From Dehalococcoidia bacterium (GTDB lineage Bacteria > Chloroflexota > Dehalococcoidia > SM23-28-2 > RBG-16-64-32): a stretch of 64,000 bases of DNA. This document shows, in pieces, positions 3,073-17,210 of the stretch. The notes below the pieces were generated by a model. It ran no database searches. It was not told the DNA's origin and worked only from the letters and a program-made list of their open reading frames with translations. The stretch is taken from assembly GCA_963667205.1 (NCBI GenBank), contig OY762959.1, positions 680,857-744,856 of the forward strand. The letters run 5' to 3'. A program made the position numbers and the translations under genes. Position 1 is the stretch's first letter. Every line of letters starts with the position of its first letter.

Positions 3073-3787
3073 CGCGCCCGAGCCGGCGCAGGAGCGGCAG
3101 ACGATCCTGCGGCTGGACGGCGTCAGCAAGATCTACCGCTCCGGCGAGTTCGAAGTGAAGGCGATCGACGACGTCACGTTCCACGTTCGGGGCGGTGAGA
3201 TCGTCGCCGTCATGGGCCCGTCTGGATCCGGCAAGACGACGCTGCTGACGATCGCGGGGGCGCTACTGACGCCCACCGTGGGGCGGGTAGAGGTCTGCGG
3301 GATCGACGTCAGCGGCATGAGCGAGAGCCAACTGGCCGGTATAAGGCGGAACAAGGTTGGGTTCGTCTACCAGAGCTCCAACCTGCTGGAGGCGCTTACC
3401 GCGCTGGAAAACGTGCGCATCGTCTCCCAAAATCACGCAGACGACAAGCAGGCTGCGGGCGAGCGAGCGAAGGATGTGCTGGAGATGTTCGGCCTGGGCC
3501 ACCGAATGAACGCGCTGCCGAAGAATATGAGCGACGGCGAGAAGCAGCGAGTCGCCATCGCCCGGGCACTGGCGAAGGACCCCGAGCTGCTGCTGGCGGA
3601 CGAGCCGACGGCGAATCTGGACGCGAAACGTGGGCACGAGGTGATGGAGCTGCTGCGCCAGAAGGCGATGGAGCTGAACAAGGCGGTGGTCGTCGTCTCG
3701 CACGACAACCGCATCCGGCAGTTCGCAGACCGCGTGGTGTGGCTGGAGGACGGCCGCCTGAGCGACGACGAAACGCACTCCGTCTGA
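3044..3787 (+). CDS. ABC transporter ATP-binding protein (MacB/LolD/DevA-like)
   Basis: Walker A GPSGSGKTTLL, ABC signature LSDGEKQRVAIARAL, Walker B LLLADEPT. Confidence 0.88.
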   Translation: MTQSPSSKADAPEPAQERQTILRLDGVSKIYRSGEFEVKAIDDVTFHVRGGEIVAVMGPSGSGKTTLLTIAGALLTPTVGRVEVCGIDVSGMSESQLAGIRRNKVGFVYQSSNLLEALTALENVRIVSQNHADDKQAAGERAKDVLEMFGLGHRMNALPKNMSDGEKQRVAIARALAKDPELLLADEPTANLDAKRGHEVMELLRQKAMELNKAVVVVSHDNRIRQFADRVVWLEDGRLSDDETHSV

Positions 3788-3968
3788 GACTCGCCCGAGC
3801 CAGGCGCCGGAGGCTCCGGATCGCATGGGCCAAATGGCGCTATCCAGTTGCTCGAAGATGGCGTCCCGCCACAGGAAAGCGCGGTCTTCGGGCGGGCGCG
3901 ACTTCACCAAGGCTGAACCGTCCCTTACCCGCCGCCGGTAACCGCTTCGTTATGTCCGCGGTCTCCCC

Positions 3969-6857: not shown

Positions 6858-7826
6858 CTAGCCGAGCCGGTCAACCGAGAGCACCACGACCTGGTCGGCG
6901 CCCGCGCAGGCGACGTAGAGCGCCCCCCCCGGGCCGACGGCGACGTCCCATGGGCCGGCCGACACCGCCGCCGTCTCGACCACTTCGTTCGTGGTGGTGT
7001 CGATGACCGAGACGCTTGCAGAGAGCGAGTTAGCGACGTAGGCGCGGCCGCGTTCGGTATCGAGGGCGACGGCGTAGGGCCCGCTCTCGACCGCGACCGT
7101 GGCGATCGCCGCGCCGGTTTCGACGTCCACGACCGAGACGGTAGAGGCTTCCGAATTGGCGACGTAGAGGCGCCCCGCGGCGGCATCGAGAGCGAGGCCA
7201 CGCGGCCGGCCGTCGACGTCGAAGCGCTGGGTGACCGCGCCGGAGGCCGGGTCGAAGACGAGTACCTGGTCCGCGGCCGCGTCGGATGCGTAGAGTTCGC
7301 TGCCGTCGGGAGACAGCTCGAGGCCCCAGGGCTCGTCGACGCCCGTCAAGGTGTCAACGACGGCCCCGACGCGGCCATCGATCACAGAGATCGAGCGGCC
7401 CTCAGCGTTGGCGACGTAGATCAGGTTGGCGGCTTCGTCCACGGCGATCGCCCAGGGTTGCCGGTCAACGGGAACGATGGCGACCGTATCGGCCGTCTCT
7501 GGACTGATCACGTTCACGGTCTCGGTGAAGGAGTTAGTGACGTAGACGAGGCCGCTCTCGCGGTTGACGGCGATCGATGAGGGGCCGCTACCTACCGACA
7601 GGGTGTTGATCGCCATCTGCGTATCGAGGTCGATGATCGAGACGCTTGATGCGCCCTTGTTCACGGCGTAGAGGCGGCCACGCTGAGCATCGATGGCCAG
7701 GCCCCAGGGCTTGGTGCCGGTCGCGATCGCCGGTGCCGGATCGTCGCCGTCTTTGCCGCCGTTGCCGGAGGAGCAGGCGACGAAGAGCGCGGAGAGCAGG
7801 ATCAGGGCGCAGGTAACGGCGCGCAT
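6858..7826 (-). CDS. YVTN-family beta-propeller repeat lipoprotein
   Basis: ATG at 7826 gives MRAVTCALILLSALFVACSS (lipobox). Seven repeats of the LYVAN..S.VSVID type (YVTN 40-residue repeat). Confidence 0.7.
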   Translation of the reverse strand: MRAVTCALILLSALFVACSSGNGGKDGDDPAPAIATGTKPWGLAIDAQRGRLYAVNKGASSVSIIDLDTQMAINTLSVGSGPSSIAVNRESGLVYVTNSFTETVNVISPETADTVAIVPVDRQPWAIAVDEAANLIYVANAEGRSISVIDGRVGAVVDTLTGVDEPWGLELSPDGSELYASDAAADQVLVFDPASGAVTQRFDVDGRPRGLALDAAAGRLYVANSEASTVSVVDVETGAAIATVAVESGPYAVALDTERGRAYVANSLSASVSVIDTTTNEVVETAAVSAGPWDVAVGPGGALYVACAGADQVVVLSVDRLG

Positions 7827-8045
7827 CGCGGCTGAGTATAGCAAACGGGCGCCGCCACAGGCCGGTGCGTTGCCGCCGCCGGGAGCCGGAGCCGATTTCA
7901 ACGGCGACGGCACCGTCCTCCGTGTTGATGTGCGTGCCTGAGCGCTATACGATCAAACGGCGTGCCTATCCCAGACTGCCCCTTCGCCCCACAGGCCCTC
8001 GCCAGAGGGCAGTCCAGCCCTGCGCGCACGCTGGGACTGCTGGCG

Positions 8046-9101
8046 ATGACGCTGACCGCCTGCGCGCTTCTCCTCGCCTGCAGCGCCAGCGGCGAGTTCG
8101 CCCCGCCGACTGCAACACCGCTTCCATCAGCGACGCCGACGGGCGCTCAGATCGCCTACGTCTCGGGCGAGAGTACCTCAACGATCCGTCTGGTCAATGA
8201 GTTCGCGCTCAACGACGTGAGCATCTCCCAGCCCGGCGGCGTCCGCAGCACCTACCCTCGATGGTCTCCGGACGACGAGCAGATCGCGTTCGTCGCGCCC
8301 CGGGACGGCCAGCTCGAAATCTTCGTCATGGCGTCAGACGGAACGCTGTTGCGGCGGTTGACGAACGACCCGGAGGCGGACCTCCTTCCTGCGTGGTCGC
8401 CAGACGGTTCTCAGATCGCCTTCATCTCTTCGCGTGATGGGAACTCCGAGATATACGTTATGAACGCCGACGGCTCCCAACCGACGCGTCTGACAAACGA
8501 CCCGGCGCTGGCCGCCTACCCAACGTGGTCCCCGGACGGCTCGCAGATCGCCTTCGCATCGGACCGCGCCGGCAATCGGGGGATCTACCTTATGAACGCC
8601 GACGGCAGCGATGTGCGCCGGCTCACCGAATCGCCGCAGCTGGACGTTTCGCCGAAGTGGTCGCCGGACGGCACACGTATCGCTTTCGTGTCGTTCCGGT
8701 CCGGCAACGGTGACATCTACACGGTGGGAGTGGATGGTGAGAACCTTGTACCCGTCACGTCGGCGGAGACGCTGGAGCGAGCGATCGCCTGGTCACCCGA
8801 CGGCTCGCGCATCGCTTACGAGGCGGTCTCCGAGGATGGCACGTCGATCCACATCGTGAATGCCGACGGCAGCGAGGACGAAACGTTGACCGACGAGTTC
8901 TCGGTGGCTACGGACCCGGATTGGTCGCCGGACGGAACGCGGATCGCCTTCATGGCGGAGGTGGACGGCAATCGGGACGTCTACACGATCGAGGTCTTCC
9001 TCGATGACGGTTCGATCGTTGGCGTGACCAGCCAGGCCGAAGCCGATGCCGCCGCCACACCGGAGATCGATCTTAGCTCGTGCCCGGACGCCGTGAGCTA
9101 G
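8046..9101 (+). CDS. TolB-like beta-propeller lipoprotein (PD40 repeats)
   Basis: ATG at 8046 gives MTLTACALLLACSAS. Repeated WSPDGSQIAF / IYVMNADGS blades. Confidence 0.7.
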   Translation: MTLTACALLLACSASGEFAPPTATPLPSATPTGAQIAYVSGESTSTIRLVNEFALNDVSISQPGGVRSTYPRWSPDDEQIAFVAPRDGQLEIFVMASDGTLLRRLTNDPEADLLPAWSPDGSQIAFISSRDGNSEIYVMNADGSQPTRLTNDPALAAYPTWSPDGSQIAFASDRAGNRGIYLMNADGSDVRRLTESPQLDVSPKWSPDGTRIAFVSFRSGNGDIYTVGVDGENLVPVTSAETLERAIAWSPDGSRIAYEAVSEDGTSIHIVNADGSEDETLTDEFSVATDPDWSPDGTRIAFMAEVDGNRDVYTIEVFLDDGSIVGVTSQAEADAAATPEIDLSSCPDAVS

Positions 9102-9330: not shown

Positions 9331-9830
9331 TTGATGCGACAGCCACGGTTTCTGGCTCTGGCCATCGTGGTCAGCCTAGCTACCTTGGCCGGCCCGCCGT
9401 CTGTGGCGCACGGAATCCTCTTGCTTACGGTCGACAGAACGGCTGACACCACGGACGGCTCCTGTGATGCGCCGTCGGATTGTACACTTCGAGAAGCGAT
9501 CATCGCCACCAACGCCGCTGGCACTCCCGACCTAATCAACTTCAGCATCCCGGGCGCTGGACCACACGATCGCTCTGGCATCCCCTCTTCCGACGGTCAC
9601 AGACGCTGTAGTGATCGATGGCACAAGCGAGCCTGACTACGCACCAGGGGTGCCAGTCGTCGTCCTGGACGGCTCCGCCGCCGGGGTCGGCGCTAACGGG
9701 CTTGAGATCACCGGTAGCACCACGGTGAAGGCCTCGTCATCCACAGCTTCGACGCTGCTGGCGTCAAGCTGTCCAGCAATGGCGGCAACGTTCCTGATAC
9801 ACGATCCTAAGCCCCAGGCGTGAGTCGCCC
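9331..9830 (+). pseudogene. Decayed N-terminal fragment of a CSLREA-domain / right-handed beta-helix secreted protein (at least 2 frameshifts, truncated)
   Basis: Signal peptide followed by DGSCDAPSDCTLREAIIATNAAGTPDLINFSIPGAGPH (CSLREA-type motif). The continuation TIALASPLPTVTDAVVIDGTSEPDYAPGVPVVVLDGSAAGVGANGLEITGSTTVK and GLVIHSFDAAGVKLSSNGGNV lies in other frames. The whole thing ends after about 170 aa. Confidence 0.6.
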
Positions 9831-9895
9831 GGCGCCGTCACAACGAAGAAGTCGTCTCCGTCAATCAGATCCTGCGTACTGACCGGCTCGGCAAA

Positions 9896-10138
9896 TCATA
9901 GCTGGATGGCGAATGGAGGCTCGCTGATAGTGGCACCGTTGGCGGGGCTGGAGAGGCTTAGCACCGGCGCCTCATCGGCCTGCCCTTCGCTGCGCGCCGG
10001 CGACAAGAGGGCGAGGGACACTGCGGCAAGCAAGGCGATCGTGAAGACGAGGGCGGTGCCCCGACTCCTTGGAAGTTTCACGAAGCGGAATGTATCACGG
10101 CGAATTGGTCGAGACAAACGGCGGCTTGACGGCGACAT
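9896..10138 (-). CDS. Small hypothetical membrane protein
   Basis: 80-aa ORF with one predicted TM (ALVFTIALLAAVSLALLSPA). No recognisable family. Could be spurious. Confidence 0.25.
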   Translation of the reverse strand: MSPSSRRLSRPIRRDTFRFVKLPRSRGTALVFTIALLAAVSLALLSPARSEGQADEAPVLSLSSPANGATISEPPFAIQL

Positions 10139-10449: not shown

Positions 10450-12066
10450 ATGCCAGACAAGTTGATCGCCCGCCGTGGCCGACGAGGCGAGTGGATGTGG
10501 GACGCACACCCATCCGCCGCCTCACAGGACGCTGCCCTGGCGCAAGGTGCCCCTCCAGGCACCGGGCGCGGGTTTAGCTTCCCTCGGATTCGGCTGCCAG
10601 GCCTTTCACTGCCCCGTCTACGGCTGCCTTCGATTTCGCTGCCGACCCTGCGGCTGCCGAGTATCTCGCTCCCGCGGCCACGGCCAACTCAGCCCGTCGC
10701 GAGGCCGCGCACGCATCCGGCCCGGCCGCAGACGCGCAGATTTTCACCATCTCAGTTCAGTCTGCCCAGCGTCAGACTGCCATCGGTCAGGTTGCCGCGG
10801 ATGAGGCTGCCCCACCTGCGGTTGCCTACGATCACGCGGCCCCATCTCAAGATGCCAACGGCGCCGCGGACTCCTTCGCTCACACTGCCCCGACTGCCGC
10901 AACGAAAACGACCGAGTTTCAGCCTTCCCAGCATCGATGTAGGATCACGCTTTCCGGCGCTCGGCCGCTTCGCCAGCCGCGTCACATCTCGCGACTTCTG
11001 GACACTGCGGCGCGTAGACGAGGCCGGCCAAGAGCGCGACTACACTCGCTTCGCCGTCGTCCTGGCCGGCCTCTCACTCGTGGCGCTGGCGGCAACCGCG
11101 GTAATCGTCCTCGCCTCGCTCGTCTCCGGAGGCAGCTCCGAAGGGCCCGGCGGACCATTTAGCATCTCGCCGACGACATCGTCGCCGGCCGACACGCCCG
11201 CGCCCAGCGGCCCGACCGAGGCGGTGTGGATCGACGCGCAAATGCTGGAGGACGATCCGCTGGCAGCGGCGACGATCCTCCGGAACACGGCCCTGGCGAC
11301 CGGCGCCACTGAGTTCGTTGCGGCGGCCAATCACATCAGGCAGGCCAGCGTCCTCGGGCGCGCGCTGAACGAGGACTTCCTTTGCCCGCTCCTGGACCAC
11401 TTCAACGTCGACTACGCATCCGGGCCGGCCGGTGCGCCTGCCTGCGGCGGCGCGATCGTACAGCCGCCGCCGGACATCGACGTCTCGCTGGGGCTCTGGG
11501 CGAACGATCTGAGCGCCTGGGAGTTCGATGGGCTGCCGGAAGGCGCCGCCAGCTACAACGAAGGCGACGAAGCTCCGTTCATCCTCAGCTGGGCGGCCGA
11601 GCCGGACGAAGAGTACACCATCGCGATCACGTACGCCTGCCGCGCCGGCGGAGTGCCCGCCATCGACTTCATATCCGGCGTGCCGGCGGCCGACGCGGAG
11701 ATCTTCGCGGCCAACGGCGGCCCAGGCGAAAAGCTACCGGGCGCCGCCGTGCCGTTGCTCAACACGCCCGACCTTGACGTTCGCGAGGGCGGCATCCCTC
11801 TCCTCTACCTTTACGGAGGACACTTCCTCCTGCTGCCTCAGGGCCCCGGTCCGGCGGCCGAGTGTGAGGATGAGCAGACGATCACTGTTCCCGTCCAGGC
11901 CGATGCCGATGAGATAGTCCTGATGGGCAGCGTCAAGCTTGCCGACGCCGACGACCACGACGGCCAGGGGGCCTCAGATGCCACCGCCAGCATCAGTCTG
12001 AGCGCCTCGGTCAGCTCTGTGGGCACGGCTACTGCCGCGTTCGAGCCGGGCGTCATCGCCCCCTGA
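10450..12066 (+). CDS. Single-pass membrane protein with N-terminal array of about 17 LPxx(R/S) pentapeptide repeats and roughly 310-aa extracytoplasmic domain
   Basis: Residues about 45-160 read LPGLS LPRLR LPSIS LPTLR LPSIS LPRPR ... LPSVR LPSVR LPRMR LPHLR LPTIT, matching a 15-nt DNA periodicity. One TM follows (FAVVLAGLSLVALAATAVIVLASLV). The C-terminal domain has no recognisable family. Confidence 0.6.
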   Translation: MPDKLIARRGRRGEWMWDAHPSAASQDAALAQGAPPGTGRGFSFPRIRLPGLSLPRLRLPSISLPTLRLPSISLPRPRPTQPVARPRTHPARPQTRRFSPSQFSLPSVRLPSVRLPRMRLPHLRLPTITRPHLKMPTAPRTPSLTLPRLPQRKRPSFSLPSIDVGSRFPALGRFASRVTSRDFWTLRRVDEAGQERDYTRFAVVLAGLSLVALAATAVIVLASLVSGGSSEGPGGPFSISPTTSSPADTPAPSGPTEAVWIDAQMLEDDPLAAATILRNTALATGATEFVAAANHIRQASVLGRALNEDFLCPLLDHFNVDYASGPAGAPACGGAIVQPPPDIDVSLGLWANDLSAWEFDGLPEGAASYNEGDEAPFILSWAAEPDEEYTIAITYACRAGGVPAIDFISGVPAADAEIFAANGGPGEKLPGAAVPLLNTPDLDVREGGIPLLYLYGGHFLLLPQGPGPAAECEDEQTITVPVQADADEIVLMGSVKLADADDHDGQGASDATASISLSASVSSVGTATAAFEPGVIAP

Positions 12067-12304
12067 TCGACAGACCAGCGGCAGACCCGCGTTCCCTGAT
12101 GCTGGTGGACCGCCTTCAGGGAGCGGCATTCTCCATGGGCTGGGCTGACCGCGCCAGCCGATGTTGGCCAGCGCCGCGACGCCACGGCCAGAGATGTATC
12201 CGCCACTAGACTCGCGTTGACGGTCGCAGTCCTGTCGCGCACAGCAACTGATGACCAGAAGGCGCAGGATGAAGAAGAGCCAGATGCGACGACTTACGAT
12301 GGCC

Positions 12305-12400
12305 GAATGTACCGACCGTCGAAAGAGCTCTTCGAGCTACAGGCTGCGCGGCGGGGCTCGTTCAGGCGACGGAGTATGATGGCACTAGGATGACGGCGTC
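12305..12400 (+). repeat. Degenerate partial copy of the 3' end of the 13850..14801 gene
   Basis: 12305-12400 (ATGTACCGACCGTCGAAAGAGCTCTTCGAGCTACAGGCTGCGCGGCGGG...GATGGCACTAGGATGA) aligns with 14700-14801 (ATGTATCGAACGTTGAAGGAGCTCCAGGGGCTACAGGCTGCCCGGCGGA...GATGGCACTAGAATGA). Confidence 0.5.
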
Positions 12401-12488
12401 TTCTCGCTCACTCACATGGTTCTCGGCTGCGGAACGAGCCGGGCCAGCCAGCGGTTGTTGGGCCATCTGCAAGGCAGCGTCCGGTGGC

Positions 12489-12580
12489 GCCACTCTCCGG
12501 ATCGACCGGCACGCCGTCTATCAGGTCGAGGAACCAGCGCCGCTCATTGAACTGGGCGTTGTCGCCGGCGCTGCCACCGT
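12489..12580 (-). pseudogene. Internal fragment of a paralog of the 14944..16608 phosphoesterase gene
   Basis: About 85% nucleotide identity to 16090-16181. Encodes ..ALRIDRHAVYQVEEPAPLIELGVV.. vs ..ALRIDRDAVHQVDEPAQLVELGVV.. (both read as antisense in the ORF track). No intact ORF. Confidence 0.5.
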
Positions 12581-12678
12581 ACGGACGCGCCGCCCTCTAG
12601 AGGGGGCCAAACGGCGAATGGCGCACGGAAAAGCCACCGTGCCGGAATCCAGCGCGCGCGGCCGTTCGTGACGTTCCT

Positions 12679-13317
12679 ATGATTCGATCCAGGAAGCCAA
12701 CGACACTCACTCCCATCACCACCGCGATCTTCGTCCTCGCCGCCATCGCGGCGCTGGCCGTTCTCTCCATCGGCGGAGGCGAAGCAGAGGCCGGTATCAC
12801 TCACACCGTTTTCGTCAACAACGACCGCTTCTGCGACAGCGCGGGCTCCGATTGTTCGCAACCGCACTCGATCCAGATCAGCGCTGGGAACACGGTCCAG
12901 TGGCTCGACGGCCAGAGCGGCGGCACCCACACCGTGACGCAGTGTACCGGCGACGGCACAGGATGCCCCGCTGGCGGCGGCTTCGATAGCGGCGTCAAGA
13001 GCGATCCGAAGGCCGGCTACCTCGCACACGTTTTCCCGGACGAAGGCACGTTCTTCTTCCGCTGCCAGATCCATGGCAACTCGATGCGTGGGATAGTGAT
13101 GGTTATCGGCCCGGCAACGGACACGCCGACTCCTGTACCGGGGACACCAACAGATTCGCCCGGCGATGATTCGCCAACGGCCACTCCGGCAGACGTCCCA
13201 AAGACCGGCGGCGAACCGGGGTCGGGCGGCTTGCCGCTGATATTGGTCGTCCTGGCGTTGGGTGGCGCTTTGGCGGTGGCCGGCTCCAGTGCGCTCTACG
13301 CCGCTCGGCGACGCTAG
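12679..13317 (+). CDS. Cupredoxin (type-1 copper, plastocyanin/azurin-like) with C-terminal LPXTG-like sorting signal
   Basis: Signal/TM, then cupredoxin ligand pattern H..C-Q-I-H-G-N-S-M (FRCQIHGNSMRGIV). P/T-rich linker. VPKTGG followed by a hydrophobic stretch (LPLILVVLALGGALAVAG) and an RRR tail. Confidence 0.75.
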   Translation: MIRSRKPTTLTPITTAIFVLAAIAALAVLSIGGGEAEAGITHTVFVNNDRFCDSAGSDCSQPHSIQISAGNTVQWLDGQSGGTHTVTQCTGDGTGCPAGGGFDSGVKSDPKAGYLAHVFPDEGTFFFRCQIHGNSMRGIVMVIGPATDTPTPVPGTPTDSPGDDSPTATPADVPKTGGEPGSGGLPLILVVLALGGALAVAGSSALYAARRR

Positions 13318-13455
13318 TCGGCCGCACTTCCTCCTGACACGGCCAGGATTCCTGGAAAGCAGACGCGCTGGCACCTTCCCGATGATGCGCCGGCGCGAGG
13401 GCACGTGGCCAGACGACGAACGCACGCTAAGCCGGGGCCGCAACTTTCTCGCGGG

Positions 13456-13605
13456 GCGCCGCCTTGGTTAGCAGCTCTCGGTGGGCGGCGTCAGCTCGAA
13501 TAGGTCGAAGGGCGCCGGGACAAGGAGCTCAGCATCGCGGTCGCTCGGGAGAGGCCCGGCCCCGCCGGGTCCAGGTACGGCTCGCGAAAGGCGAGCTGAC
13601 GGGCG
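13456..13605 (-). pseudogene. 3'-terminal fragment (last ~50 codons plus TAA) of a phosphoesterase paralog
   Basis: 13468-13605 is about 88% identical to 14953-15090, the 3' end of the intact gene. Encodes ...FDLFELTPPTESC* vs ...FDLFELPPPTESR*. No upstream ORF continuity. Confidence 0.55.
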
Positions 13606-13849
13606 ACGCCGGCGTGCCAGCGACTACCGAGGCTCTGCGATGACAACGACAGGCAGTTTCTGCTCAACACTCCACTTCAGCGGTCTTCCCATGCCGACGT
13701 CCTTTCGTCACGACCAGACCACCTCGAATCGACCGACTGGCTGAGATTCGACGGCTATTGCCGATACTAAAGGTAGGCCAAATGGCCAAGAAGCTACTCG
13801 GGCGTTCCGAGCGCGGCCTGTCCTACTCATATTTAGAAAGGCGGACGAA

Positions 13850-14801
13850 ATGGTATCGGATCGTAAACTCAAGGCCAATCGTCGTAACGCAAAGCGTTCG
13901 ACCGGACCCAAGAATTCAACGCGCAGCAGGTACAACGCCCGGCAGCATTGCATCCTATCGAGGGCGGCTATCATCGAGGATGGCGACGCAAAGGAGGACC
14001 CACGCGAGCTGGAATCTCTCCTGGAGGCGCTCTGGAAGGACCGCGAGCCCGTGGGTGCGATGGAGGAGTTCCCTGGTGGATCGCATTGCCTCCTGTCAGT
14101 GGCGCCTGCGTCGGGCTCAGCTAGCCGAAGTGGGCGAGATCAGGCGGGTCGCCGACAGCGCCGTGATGGACGCTCTGGACTCTACCGTTGACAGATACGA
14201 ATTATCGATGGAGAAAAAGGAGATGGGCCCCCCTTCCGTCGTTGGCGGAAGCAGCGAGCGCGAATTGGCCAAGACCACTCATGGGATCGCCCACATCCAG
14301 ATTGTCCTTGATCGCATGAGCGGCTTGGTCGAAGATCAAGGAACCCTCACCAAGAATCAACTAACTGTAGTGGCCACTATCTACGGCCGTCGGGTAGGCG
14401 GCTTCGCAGTCTTCCTCTCAAACATCGCGGCCATGTCAACGCGTGGCCTGCAGGCGAAGGACGACGAGGAGCCGGACGGCAAGGAGCCAGATACACGCCG
14501 TGACATTCTTTCGCCAGGAGTCGGCAACGAGCTCCTCCTGGCCTGGATCGACGCGGAAATCGCGAGGCTAAGGAACGAAGCTGGCTTAGTGATCGAGAGG
14601 GAGGGGCTCGAACTGCACGCCACGGTACTGTCGCGGCAGCTTCCCAGTGACAAGGTCCTTGAAAAGATCGGCAGGTACGAGACAACGATTGAGCGCCAGA
14701 TGTATCGAACGTTGAAGGAGCTCCAGGGGCTACAGGCTGCCCGGCGGACGTTCGACTCGCTTGGGCGCTTCGGACAACGGAGTGTGATGGCACTAGAATG
14801 A
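13850..14801 (+). CDS. Hypothetical protein, low-GC (foreign-looking), with +1 frameshift near 14068
   Basis: MVSDRKLKANRRNAKRSTGPKN...MEEF (frame of 13850) continues as LVDRIASCQWRLRRAQ... (frame of 13758). There is an extra C in TTCCCTGG. GC is clearly below the local mean. No recognisable domain. Confidence 0.45.
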
Positions 14802-14943
14802 CGGCAAGACCTCAAAGGGCGGGCCAAGCGGCCCGTCCTTCTTCTTCATGCGCGCTCCCCTGCCGTAGCGCACATATGTTCGTCTCGTCACACAAAGCGT
14901 TTCTGCGAAACGAAGCCACCACAGCGTCGTCTAGCTGCTGACT

Positions 14944-16608
14944 CTAGCGGGACTCGGTGGGCGGTGGCAGCTCGAACAGGTCGAAGGGCGCCGGGACTAG
15001 GAGCTCAGCGTTGCGGTCGCTCAGCGAGAGGCCCGGCCCAGCCGGGTCCAACTGCGGATCACGGAAGGCGAGCTGACGAGCGACGCCGGCGAGGAGCCGC
15101 TGGTTGAGCCCGTCCTCCGGCGTCCCGTCCTCGGCGTCGCCGGGGTTCACCGTCGTCGCCAGGCCGTACATCGTCGTGAAGATGGAGAGCGTGCCGTCGC
15201 GGTTGTCGACGATCTCCAGCAGGCGGCCCTGCATCGGGAAGTCGAGGGCGCCGGCCGTCGTCACTTCCCAGTAGCCGCCACCGGCAGCGGCGGGCCTGGC
15301 CGAAATGCTGTTGCGCCCGGTGTGGCCGGAGAGCCAGAGGACCACGTTCGGAAAGCGGCCGACGAGATCCTCCACCTCCCCACGGAGGGTGCGAGGCTCG
15401 CCGTCGGTGCCGGGATACGGGTTCGTCATGACGGCGGACGGGTGGTGGCTAACGATCACCATCAGGCGATCGGCGTTTTCCGTCGTGACGAACTGGCCGC
15501 CGCCGTCGGCGTAGCTGCTGCTGTGAGCGGTCAGCCGTTCTTCCAGCCAGTCGTATTGCGCCTGGTCGAGGCTGCCGGAGGGGAAGCCGGACGGATTGGC
15601 CGAGTCGAGAACGATGAAGACGACGCCGTTCTCCTCGAAGGTATAGTGGGCACGGCCCTCATTCGCCCCCTGTATCGAGAAGCCATGCCCCAGCGGTCCC
15701 GGGCCTGTGTTCGGCGGCGGGAGGTGCTCGCGGATCCAGTCGGAGTGCGAGATCAGGCGTCGGTTCTTGTCGGCGCCCACGCCGCGGATTATCGTCCCCG
15801 GGTCGTTCAGGAGCTCGGCAGAAGGCCCGGGCCCGAATATTGAGCCGCTGTCGCAGACCTCTGCGAGGGCGGCGGGGCCGAGCGCGAATATCTTCTGCGC
15901 TCCGGTGGCGACCTCGGCGGCACGCTCGGTGAGCGGAAAGTTGCCCTGGCTGAGGGCGTCGTGGTTGCCGGCTACGGCGTACCAGGGGTAGTTGATCCCC
16001 TCCGGGATGAACGCCTCCTGGGCCAGCGTCAGCAGGTCTGCATAGGCCTTTGCCGGCGACTCCGTCTGCACGCCCTCGTAACCGACGGCGCCGCTCTCCG
16101 GATCGACCGGGACGCCGTCCATCAGGTCGATGAACCAGCGCAGCTCGTTGAACTGGGCGTTGTCGGCGGCGCTGCCGGTGTGGATCGCGAAGTCAACGGG
16201 GGCGCGGGTGACGGGACTGCGATCGACGACGTTGGCCTGGGCGATGAGCGCTTCGGCGACGTGCAGACTGAGTGACTCCTGCGACCGGAAGGACTTATCA
16301 TTGACGGCGGAGTTGCAGGCTTCGAGCCATTCGCTCCGCAGAGGCGATTCTTCATCGACGATGCCAAAGTCGGAGAGCTGGTGGAAGACAACGAGCAAAA
16401 GACGACGGTCCCGGCGGTCGCTCTGGGCCTGCGCAAGCTCCGTGCGGACCGTGTACGGCTCGCCCTCAGCGACGACGAGGTTCCCCTCGCTGTCCACGCC
16501 CAGCGTCTGAGTGAGCGTCGTCCCGGAAGGCGGTGGCTCGTCGCTCTTGCACGCGGCGGCGAGCGCGAGGAGAGCGAGGAGCGCGGCGCACACGAAGAGT
16601 CGGTGCAT
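14944..16608 (-). CDS. Calcineurin-like metallophosphoesterase lipoprotein
   Basis: ATG at 16608 gives MHRLFVCAALLALLALAAACKS (lipobox). GNHD metallophosphoesterase motif (YAVAGNHDAL). About 555 aa. Confidence 0.75.
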   Translation of the reverse strand: MHRLFVCAALLALLALAAACKSDEPPPSGTTLTQTLGVDSEGNLVVAEGEPYTVRTELAQAQSDRRDRRLLLVVFHQLSDFGIVDEESPLRSEWLEACNSAVNDKSFRSQESLSLHVAEALIAQANVVDRSPVTRAPVDFAIHTGSAADNAQFNELRWFIDLMDGVPVDPESGAVGYEGVQTESPAKAYADLLTLAQEAFIPEGINYPWYAVAGNHDALSQGNFPLTERAAEVATGAQKIFALGPAALAEVCDSGSIFGPGPSAELLNDPGTIIRGVGADKNRRLISHSDWIREHLPPPNTGPGPLGHGFSIQGANEGRAHYTFEENGVVFIVLDSANPSGFPSGSLDQAQYDWLEERLTAHSSSYADGGGQFVTTENADRLMVIVSHHPSAVMTNPYPGTDGEPRTLRGEVEDLVGRFPNVVLWLSGHTGRNSISARPAAAGGGYWEVTTAGALDFPMQGRLLEIVDNRDGTLSIFTTMYGLATTVNPGDAEDGTPEDGLNQRLLAGVARQLAFRDPQLDPAGPGLSLSDRNAELLVPAPFDLFELPPPTESR

Positions 16609-16688
16609 GATCATTCTGAATACTAAACGCTTGACACGCCGCCATGGGCGCAATAGGCTGGCAGCCAGTTGAACCAGGAGGATACGTT

Positions 16689-17210
16689 ATGTCGACTGTC
16701 GATTTCATCCGCGGTAGCCTCAAGCAGCTCCATCGCTCGTACGACGAGGCGATCGCCGACCTCTCACCCGAGCAGCTGCACTGGCGCGCCAACGACCACG
16801 GCCACCCGATCTCGTTCGTGCTATGGCATTACGTGCGCACGGAGGACAACATCATCCAGTTCGTGCTACAGCGTAAGCCGACGGTCTGGATTGAAGGCGG
16901 CTGGTACGAGAAGCTCGCGCTCCACAGGACGGCGCAGGGGACGGGGATGAGCCTGGAGGACGCCCAGAACCTGAGGATCGACGCGCTGGACGACTGGCGG
17001 GGCTACCAGACGGCCGTCTGGGAGACGACGGACGCCTTTCTCGCCGCGGCCGACGACGCGATGTTGGAGCAGACGACGACCGTGAAGCCGCTGGGCGAGA
17101 TGCCGGTGCAGAACGCGATCGGCATGATGTGCCTGACGCACGGGTTCACGCACCTGGGAGAGGTGCAGCACGTCCGCGGCCTGGTGGGCCTGAAGGGGAT
17201 GGGCTGGTAG
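16689..17210 (+). CDS. DinB/YfiT-like (DinB_2) metal-dependent hydrolase family protein
   Basis: GGAGG 7 nt upstream of the ATG at 16689. LHWRANDHGHPISFVLWHY motif typical of the DinB superfamily. Confidence 0.6.
   Translation: MSTVDFIRGSLKQLHRSYDEAIADLSPEQLHWRANDHGHPISFVLWHYVRTEDNIIQFVLQRKPTVWIEGGWYEKLALHRTAQGTGMSLEDAQNLRIDALDDWRGYQTAVWETTDAFLAAADDAMLEQTTTVKPLGEMPVQNAIGMMCLTHGFTHLGEVQHVRGLVGLKGMGW

Follow-up and report, generated by a model that had tools for sequence, protein, structure and literature searches.

A probable decayed integrative element in the 3' end of a phosphoesterase gene of a Dehalococcoidia bacterium

Introduction

Several described systems resemble the locus considered in the present study, at which an intact metallophosphoesterase gene (PE) of a Dehalococcoidia bacterium lies next to a frameshifted gene of low GC content (the low-GC gene), a cupredoxin-like gene and a set of displaced gene fragments, all within a stretch of 64,000 nucleotides (GenBank assembly GCA_963667205.1, contig OY762959.1, positions 680,857 to 744,856; hereafter the window). 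In Escherichia coli, integration of the prophage e14 in icd splits off a 163-bp 3' piece of the gene (icd'/icdC), and the prophage supplies the end of the open reading frame (ORF) (PMC6379469, PMC13626634). Like e14, and like phage 21, in icd, the element proposed here would lie within the 3' end of a gene that encodes a protein, and would provide that gene with a substitute 3' end, so that the target gene stays intact; the element is also "grounded" and decaying. In contrast to e14, one pseudogene is the sole surviving element gene at the present locus and there is no integrase; the two PE copies are 13% diverged and a frameshift has occurred, whereas icd and icdC are nearly identical; and the extra fragments on the left require further duplication. 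In another difference from e14, relatives of the low-GC gene family are mostly located beside large serine recombinases. Large serine recombinases normally need no long homology.

The locus also resembles grounded (defective) prophages and the remnants of genomic islands in its lower GC content, pseudogenised element genes, debris of insertion sequences (IS), synteny breakpoint and variable content among close relatives, although the remnant observed here is tiny (the repeats are ~1.3 kb apart) and is mixed with fragments of the adjacent host gene. In addition, features of tandem segmental duplication followed by deletional decay are present, including direct repeats, breakpoints within genes, neutral-looking substitutions, frameshifts and the loss of one copy of each gene. 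Bacterial tandem segmental duplications are usually transient, whereas the remains at this locus have lasted long enough to diverge by ~10-25%, and every sampled strain carries them.

Herein, we propose that the region is probably a non-functional scar, left by an integrative mobile element that was inserted in the 3' end of PE and subsequently decayed. All of the PE-derived and low-GC-derived fragments are dead DNA.

Results

A 147-bp direct repeat of the PE 3' end, running to the stop codon, brackets lower-GC DNA, and the GC content of the low-GC gene is 0.55-0.63 compared with 0.65-0.72 in the flanks. The two copies of this repeat (13469-13614 and 14945-15091; 87% identity, 147 columns, 1 gap, E 2.9e-45 in self-blastn) are similar exactly from both stop codons (TAA and TAG), and the similarity breaks off abruptly at codon ~520. 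The copy at 14945-15091 (Pc) is the end of the intact gene, and the displaced copy (Pc'') has one frameshift and its own stop codon TAA (13468-13470). The sequence flanking Pc'' (13387-13439) matches that following the PE stop codon in the related contig L014, which is without the low-GC gene, at 39 of 52 positions, at the same distance and in the same orientation. The local alignment score of 26 was reached in none of 2000 dinucleotide shuffles (mean 10.0, standard deviation 1.5, maximum 20), and the other four flank types scored 7-10 against the Pc'' flank; the L014-type native flank is carried by one relative only. The flank of the intact PE (14866-14929), on the other hand, is of the type observed in the element-bearing relatives L001, L010 and L102. 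Since Pc'' carries the L014-type flank and the intact gene carries the element-type flank, we consider it rather likely that Pc'' is the original 3' end of PE and that the present 3' end was imported with the low-GC side. The features of the locus are as follows.

12138..12207, minus strand: C-terminal part (codons ~41-64) of a decayed IS3-OrfA-like helix-turn-helix (HTH) ORF (Hc); 82% to L001 289-357, 87% to L005 144-198
12288..12393, plus strand: 3'-end remnant of a second copy of the low-GC gene (L3'); 72% to 14700-14805 and to the L001 gene end
12394..12479, plus strand: first ~90 nt of the spacer located 3' of the low-GC gene in relatives (Ia'), from comparison with L010 and L001-L004
12463..12575, minus strand: pseudogene fragment of PE codons ~160-197 (Pm'); 86% to 16062-16176
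12679..13317, plus strand: cupredoxin-like gene (CUP), intact, 212 aa; homologs and conserved putative copper ligands
13387..13468, minus strand: native downstream flank of PE, attached to the displaced PE 3' end; L014 match
13469..13614, minus strand: displaced copy of the last ~49 PE codons (Pc''); 87% to 14945-15091
13625..13693, minus strand: N-terminal ~22 codons of the IS3-OrfA-like HTH ORF (Hn); tblastn with the L010 88-aa ORF
13850..14801, plus strand: low-GC gene (L), frameshifted pseudogene; frameshift at 14071-14073
14815..14840, plus strand: terminator-like hairpin 3' of the low-GC gene; terminator scan
14866..14929, no strand assigned: element-side flank beside the PE stop codon (Ic); 83% to L001 2128-2186, 85% to L102
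14944..16653, minus strand: PE gene, intact, 569 aa; the PE-derived fragments are copies of its parts Pc (14945-15091) and Pm (16062-16176)

PE encodes a metallophosphoesterase of the TIGR03767 family (376.8 bits, cutoff 330.75), which also matches PF00149 (24.6, cutoff 21.5). Its full-length orthologs share 79-82% amino-acid identity, and the closest named relatives come from metagenome-assembled genomes (MAGs) of Chloroflexota/Dehalococcoidia.

Occupied and empty sites are both present among close relatives. A comparison with relatives, which a first-pass annotation of the window had suggested as a way to the ancestral arrangement, revealed a simple order of IS debris, low-GC gene and PE in the contigs L001-L006 and L010, in which the low-GC gene (75-77% identical at the protein level) is convergent with PE, as in the window, and the two genes are separated by a 680-bp spacer. 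Upstream of the low-GC gene, these contigs carry debris of the IS3-OrfA-like HTH ORF, preceded by the tail of the 140-aa gene of a module described below; the intact-looking 73-aa and 88-aa HTH ORFs of L001 and L010 match PF01527 HTH_Tnp_1 weakly (E 0.0046, below the cutoff). Compared with this arrangement, the window contains ~1.44 kb of extra sequence (12208-13651), located inside the HTH ORF. Remnants of PE or of the cupredoxin gene were looked for within the 680-bp spacer of the L001-type contigs, and none were found. The identity between the window and L001 is 83.6% for the low-GC gene and 84.2% for PE.

The contigs L014, L015, L102 and L103 carry PE orthologs with 80-83% nucleotide identity to the window and share the upstream synteny, comprising sigma-70, nitroreductase, a 115-aa gene, (an HD gene), DinB and PE. 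This synteny breaks at the PE stop codon, which is followed by four different contents: an M36 peptidase in L014, a 174-aa gene and a TSP_3 protein in L015, a 300-aa gene and a TSP_3 protein in L103, and the L001-type spacer in L102. The element-side flank is present in L102, L001 and L010 and absent from L014, L015 and L103. L102 and L014 are 94.3% identical in PE and 96.6% in DinB, and the lineage of the window is their outgroup. Thus, the presence and absence of the low-GC side alternate between relatives that are 94-97% identical, and the switch occurs at the PE stop codon. A single PE was observed at this locus in every relative examined. A search of the representatives in GTDB for close relatives returned one distant Chloroflexota match only (28% identity).

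Three side observations concern these neighbourhoods. At 17210/17211, the window is without the ~0.9-kb HD-domain gene that is located between the 115-aa gene and DinB in L014, L015, L102 and L103, and the stop codons abut. A segment of the window at 9791-9997 (minus strand) is 47% identical over 70 aa to a 235-aa ORF of L014; this is the sole similarity to the genes downstream of the L014 PE, and it may mark the leftward resumption of synteny. The contigs of the element-bearing relatives (L102, which is GCA_022560365.1, L001-L006 and L010) break 0.2-2 kb from the locus, and L102 ends 177 nt past the PE stop codon, which suggests strain-level heterogeneity or repeats in those communities.

At 14071-14073, one C too many in TTCCCTGG shifts the frame of the low-GC gene by +1; removal of this base restores a 316-aa frame. 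In addition, the encoded protein carries the changes G34C and L35I at two columns, Gly34 and Leu35, that are invariant or nearly so in the alignment of the family. The frameshift and the changed conserved residues show that the low-GC gene is a pseudogene, and it is a pseudogene in every strain seen. The first-pass annotation had described a frameshifted low-GC gene bracketed by two copies of the PE 3' end, and both the extra C and the 87% repeat bear this out. A terminator-like hairpin at 14815-14840 is lineage-specific and stands in place of the spacer of the relatives; among the loci compared, only L013 and L017 share it. This hairpin is unique in the window and was rejected as a repeated palindromic element. 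Ic holds a terminator-like hairpin of PE (14898-14912, minus strand, terminator scan).

From these observations, the following history may be proposed. An element with the low-GC gene near its end would have been inserted ~147 bp ahead of the PE stop codon, bringing with it a substitute PE 3' end. PE would thereby have been kept intact (14944-16653), and its original last ~49 codons would have been shifted, together with the native flank, to the far side of the element (13387-13614). Subsequently, as the surviving sequence shows, the element decayed: an IS3-like insertion left the HTH debris, nearly all of the element genes were deleted, and the low-GC gene became frameshifted and altered at conserved residues. 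Searches with tblastn for a recombinase, a primase and other proteins that neighbour the low-GC family found none near the locus, and the DNA enclosed by the repeats holds nothing but HTH debris and one pseudogene. An IS element was considered as a candidate and rejected, as only split HTH_Tnp_1-like debris (E 0.0046), no DDE domain and no terminal inverted repeats were observed. Hn is fused almost directly to Pc''; residues 1-19 of the 88-aa ORF of L010 match 13692-13639 (tblastn), and the translation is LKWSVEQKLPVVVIAEPR followed by a stop. Far from the locus, the segment 41502-41603 (minus strand) weakly resembles the resolvase domain of a serine recombinase from L058 (tblastn, 41% over 34 aa, E 0.004), and is possibly an unrelated resolvase-domain gene.

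Repeat finding and self-blastn of 12000-17000 against the whole window located two more pairs of repeats besides that of the PE 3' end. One pairs 12463-12575 with 16062-16176 (86%, 115 columns, E 3.1e-32), with an ungapped core of 95 nt that is 91% identical (12481-12575 and 16082-16176), and the other pairs 12307-12397 with 14700-14805 (72%, 106 columns, 15 gap columns, E 1.6e-10). All of the repeats are direct, and blastn found no further copies of the three segments within the window. The same three pairs had been reported in the first-pass annotation, and the coordinates agree within a few bases; the location of the cupredoxin-like ORF (12679-13317) among the fragments, and the lack of collinearity between the order of the fragments and the intact PE gene, also proved correct.

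The fragments on the left show signs of decay. L3' has internal deletions and its own TGA stop (12391-12393), and its translation, ending in ...GRMYRPSKELFELQAARRGSFRRRSMMALG and a stop, matches ...RQMYRTLKELQGLQAARRTFDSLGRFGQRSVMALE and a stop; an extension of this remnant to 12226-12287, where a "DEEEPD" resemblance exists at the protein level, was rejected because it is unsupported at the nucleotide level. Ia' is 84% identical to the first 99 nt past the low-GC stop codon in L010 and 79% identical to L001-L004; this spacer is missing from the window's own intact-length copy of the low-GC gene, and the junction between Ia' and Pm' is at ~12479. Pm' covers the motif region GSA.DNAQFNE..WF.DL.DGVPVDPESG and is 90-92% identical to the same segment of L014, L015 and L016. 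Its mismatches fall on the three codon positions as 3/6/5, and its single-site changes comprise 3 synonymous and 11 non-synonymous; the corresponding synonymous to non-synonymous counts are 10:10 for Pc'' and 13:29 for L3'. Judged by these counts, the fragments look like sequences that decay neutrally. The ungapped divergence is 9% for Pm', 12% for Pc'' and 14-21% for L3', values roughly compatible with one event in which one partner (PE) has been constrained and the other pair has been free. There are at least six novel junctions between 12137 and 14866. Serial duplication or insertion and deletion, which the first-pass annotation had proposed, is thus supported by the frameshifted, decaying fragments, by these junctions and by the ~1.44 kb of extra sequence.

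Serial integration at the same site cannot explain the left side, since a low-GC remnant, a spacer and a PE-internal piece all lie to the left of the cupredoxin gene and the native flank; a tandem array of two elements in series at the same site was therefore rejected, because it would put the second low-GC remnant on the other side of the native flank and Pc''. Two tandem copies of a unit running from the cupredoxin gene to PE codon 160 are collinear with the observed order, Hc-L3'-Ia'-Pm' / CUP-flank-Pc''-Hn-L-Ic-PE, in which ~150 nt of flank separate the cupredoxin gene from the displaced PE codons. We infer that a single tandem duplication of a unit that begins ahead of the cupredoxin gene and ends at PE codon ~160 may have occurred, with its junction at 12575/12576, where the PE-internal fragment would have been joined to the cupredoxin upstream region. 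The left copy would have been reduced to Hc, L3', Ia' and Pm' by at least three or four deletions, and the right copy would have lost Hc and the spacer. An imperfect 13-nt microhomology is located beside the 12479 junction, at one of the proposed deletions.

The layout is real and fixed in this species. Layout and frameshift are the same, apart from few single-nucleotide polymorphisms (SNPs), in L013 (assembly source ERZ28669063; 99.66% identity over 16.1 kb, on a 2.66-Mb contig) and L017 (assembly source ERZ25074053; on a 220-kb contig), and the 241-aa truncated product of the low-GC gene was found on contigs of 2.55, 2.66 and 4.57 Mb; at least four independent assemblies of near-identical strains have this layout in common.

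The low-GC gene belongs, on the evidence of profile searches, to a very large unnamed family of ~310 aa. With a profile built from 18 full-length homologs, a threshold of E<=1e-3 gave 32,415 clusters (50% identity), and the stricter threshold of E<=1e-30 gave 1,635. The protein matched no family in Pfam, NCBIfam, PHROG or PADLOC, and a profile search against PDB gave coiled-coil noise only. Its AlphaFold2 model consists entirely of long helices (pLDDT 77.5), and Foldseek found no match to this model in PDB below E 0.06. The neighbourhoods of the family were examined in 46 metagenome loci, none of them shorter than 5 kb. In 12 of these loci, tblastn located large serine recombinases nearby (with the domains Resolvase + Recombinase + Zn_ribbon_recom), and in 11 a 205-aa ORF was located directly downstream of the family gene. 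Other recurrent neighbours are an NrS-1-like prim-pol, DUF3854, HTH_17, an IrrE/ImmA-type peptidase with XRE regulators, and methylase/ResIII pairs. When 116 neighbouring ORFs of 30 non-redundant loci were classified with Pfam, the most frequent families were Resolvase (7), Recombinase (6) and Zn_ribbon_recom (5), followed by DNA methylases, primase/helicase domains, HTH_17, HTH_3 and DDE_3. The simplest reading of this gene company, in which excisionase-like HTH proteins and restriction-modification genes occur beside serine recombinases and primases, is that the family is a gene of chromosomally integrated mobile elements. The family had no match in INPHARED phages, two weak matches in PLSDB, to the N-terminus only, and four weak N-terminal matches in IMG/VR, and on these near-empty searches a phage or plasmid origin was rejected.

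Further observations concern the arrangement of the family in individual loci. In L032, L036 and L056-L058, the family gene is located between primase or prim-pol genes and the 205-aa ORF with a large serine recombinase. The closer relatives of the low-GC gene (at least 41% identity) end a four-gene module, comprising a 216-aa gene, a SWIM zinc finger gene of ~100-118 aa, a ~140-aa gene and the family gene, which was observed in L007, L011, L012, L022, L023 and L033 (e.g. L011 473-2998). The ~140-aa protein gave only weak Mu Gam/Gp157-like and RecE-like matches. L007 shows another local duplication beside the low-GC family: downstream of a dockerin gene, part of the 140-aa gene is present a second time (3525-3866, 85% identical). 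The 216-aa/SWIM/140-aa module was rejected as a general partner of the family, as it is restricted to the closer members and absent from the window.

The cupredoxin-like gene is an intact neighbour and no part of the mechanism. The predicted protein has a signal/transmembrane (TM) segment, a putative type-1 copper domain, a Pro/Thr linker and a VPKTGG + TM + RRR anchor. Its own matches to halocyanin/plastocyanin profiles are below the cutoff (24 bits compared with 93.8), some homologs carry PF00127 or are named plastocyanin, and H84, C129, H132 and M136 are invariant or nearly so in the alignment. No match was found among PDB sequences. Residues 41-142, the copper domain, are 81% identical to the protein P0331, and such proteins end in a dockerin-like DVNCDG..DGDD module, whereas residues 143-212, the linker and VPKTGGEP-TM-RRR anchor, share 80% identity with P0345, a protein that reaches only 41% in the copper domain. 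As judged from these alignments, the gene is itself a mosaic, with a breakpoint near nt 13105.

For the window, a search against Rfam found no more than two distant tRNAs, and L001, L010 and L011 gave no match at all; a hidden non-coding RNA in the spacers was rejected, as Rfam gave no match there. To the left of the locus, a 538-aa ORF (10450-12066) has N-terminal Pro/Leu/Arg-rich tandem repeats of the LPSISLPRLRLP type and no family match, and it stops 71 nt ahead of Hc, the first fragment. Left of ~8524 (~7630-8725), the structure of the window is unlike that of the otherwise 99.7%-identical L013, with 94.8% identity, internal repeats and a repeat-rich coding region, and related short repeats are also located at 694-800, 1154-1189 and 1431-1539. 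These observations suggest a variable repetitive gene for a surface protein.

Discussion

Several results of the present study weigh against the integration of an element in the 3' end of PE. Pc'' and the window's own PE (Pc) have derived states in common that no ortholog shows. Local duplication would explain this better than a substitute 3' end of foreign origin would, and the integration model therefore needs either gene conversion or a donor of the same lineage. In the comparison of L102 (occupied) with L014 (empty), the last 150 nt of PE contain 16 mismatches compared with 4-13 in the other bins, but this excess is confined to the last ~65 nt, which are variable among occupied sites too, and no clean step in divergence was seen at codon ~520. 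The contigs of the element-bearing relatives (1.5-2.9 kb) are too short to reveal a displaced PE fragment at the far end of the element, and neither a recombinase nor another element gene survives in the window. The path by duplication and deletions needs many events, and the complementary retention of Hc/Hn and Ia/Ic is unaccounted for.

A rival explanation, that purely local segmental duplications of the neighbourhood of the low-GC gene and PE were followed by decay, with neither site-specific nor Campbell-type integration, is less likely. Apart from the lineage-specific derived states of Pc and Pc'', it would account for the direct orientation and broadly similar divergence of all the repeats, and the equal divergence of the low-GC gene (83.6% identity) and PE (84.2%) between the window and L001 is what an old, vertically inherited pair would show. 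However, a copy of the current PE end should carry Ic, yet Pc'' has the L014-type flank (0 of 2000 shuffles); the repeat boundary falls exactly at the stop codon, which would be rare for a random breakpoint; and the occupied/empty polymorphism of L102 and L014, which are 94-97% identical, points to mobility at the site. Former PE paralogs are an improbable source of the fragments. One or two members of an old tandem family, destroyed by insertions and deletions, would supply the more than one PE-derived unit that the fragment order demands, and Pm' retains the ancestral state TTCCTCGAC, which is changed in the window PE; against this, the relatives examined have a single PE at the locus, Pc'' clusters with the PE of the window instead of branching off outside the orthologs, and a divergence of 9-14% is far below that between TIGR03767 paralog groups (52-58% amino-acid identity to the next group).

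The suggestion of the first-pass annotation that the low-GC gene is a cassette recombining via PE-derived repeats was upheld in one part only. The gene is a relic of an integrative element, and the pair of PE 3' ends resembles a gene-end duplication of the attL/attR type. As an active mechanism of exchange, the cassette is very unlikely: the 147-bp direct repeats (87%) do bracket the gene, and its lower GC content and mobile-element-associated family would suit a mobile gene, but the frameshift is present in all of the at least four assemblies, the window contains no second copy, recombinase, attC-like site or terminal inverted repeats, family members elsewhere are one gene among many in larger elements and not solo cassettes, and repeats that are 13% diverged and contain an indel are poor substrates for homologous recombination. 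An artefact of assembly or a chimera might be feared in a metagenome-derived sequence whose related contigs break near the locus, and has next to no probability. The recurrence of the same layout and frameshift, few SNPs apart, in independent assemblies from different samples excludes an assembly artefact, and the repeats are diverged (72-87%) and not identical, as collapsed or duplicated reads would be.

Thus, we consider that a decayed integrative element in the PE 3' end probably accounts for this region, and the locus adds an example to processes already known; an active cassette has no support in any of the observations. Since the mosaic can be read as dead DNA, annotation should record four fragments as pseudogenes and one gene as frameshifted, in place of chimeric ORFs. 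On this reading, the locus provides an example of target-preserving insertion of the e14/icd type from uncultured Dehalococcoidia-like Chloroflexota, and the site is a hotspot of gene-content change among close relatives.

A more far-reaching proposal, to which we attach little probability, is that the low-GC family has a core part, with a new function, in integrative elements of a class that is widespread but has yet to be described. In that case, it might, for example, act as a directionality or targeting factor with large serine recombinases, and the PE 3'-end repeats might be the footprint of site choice. Apart from this proposal, the family could mark an undescribed class of integrative elements, and its company of mobile-element genes could help to delimit integrative elements in environmental genomes. 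This large, unnamed mobile-element family is the most useful lead from the locus.

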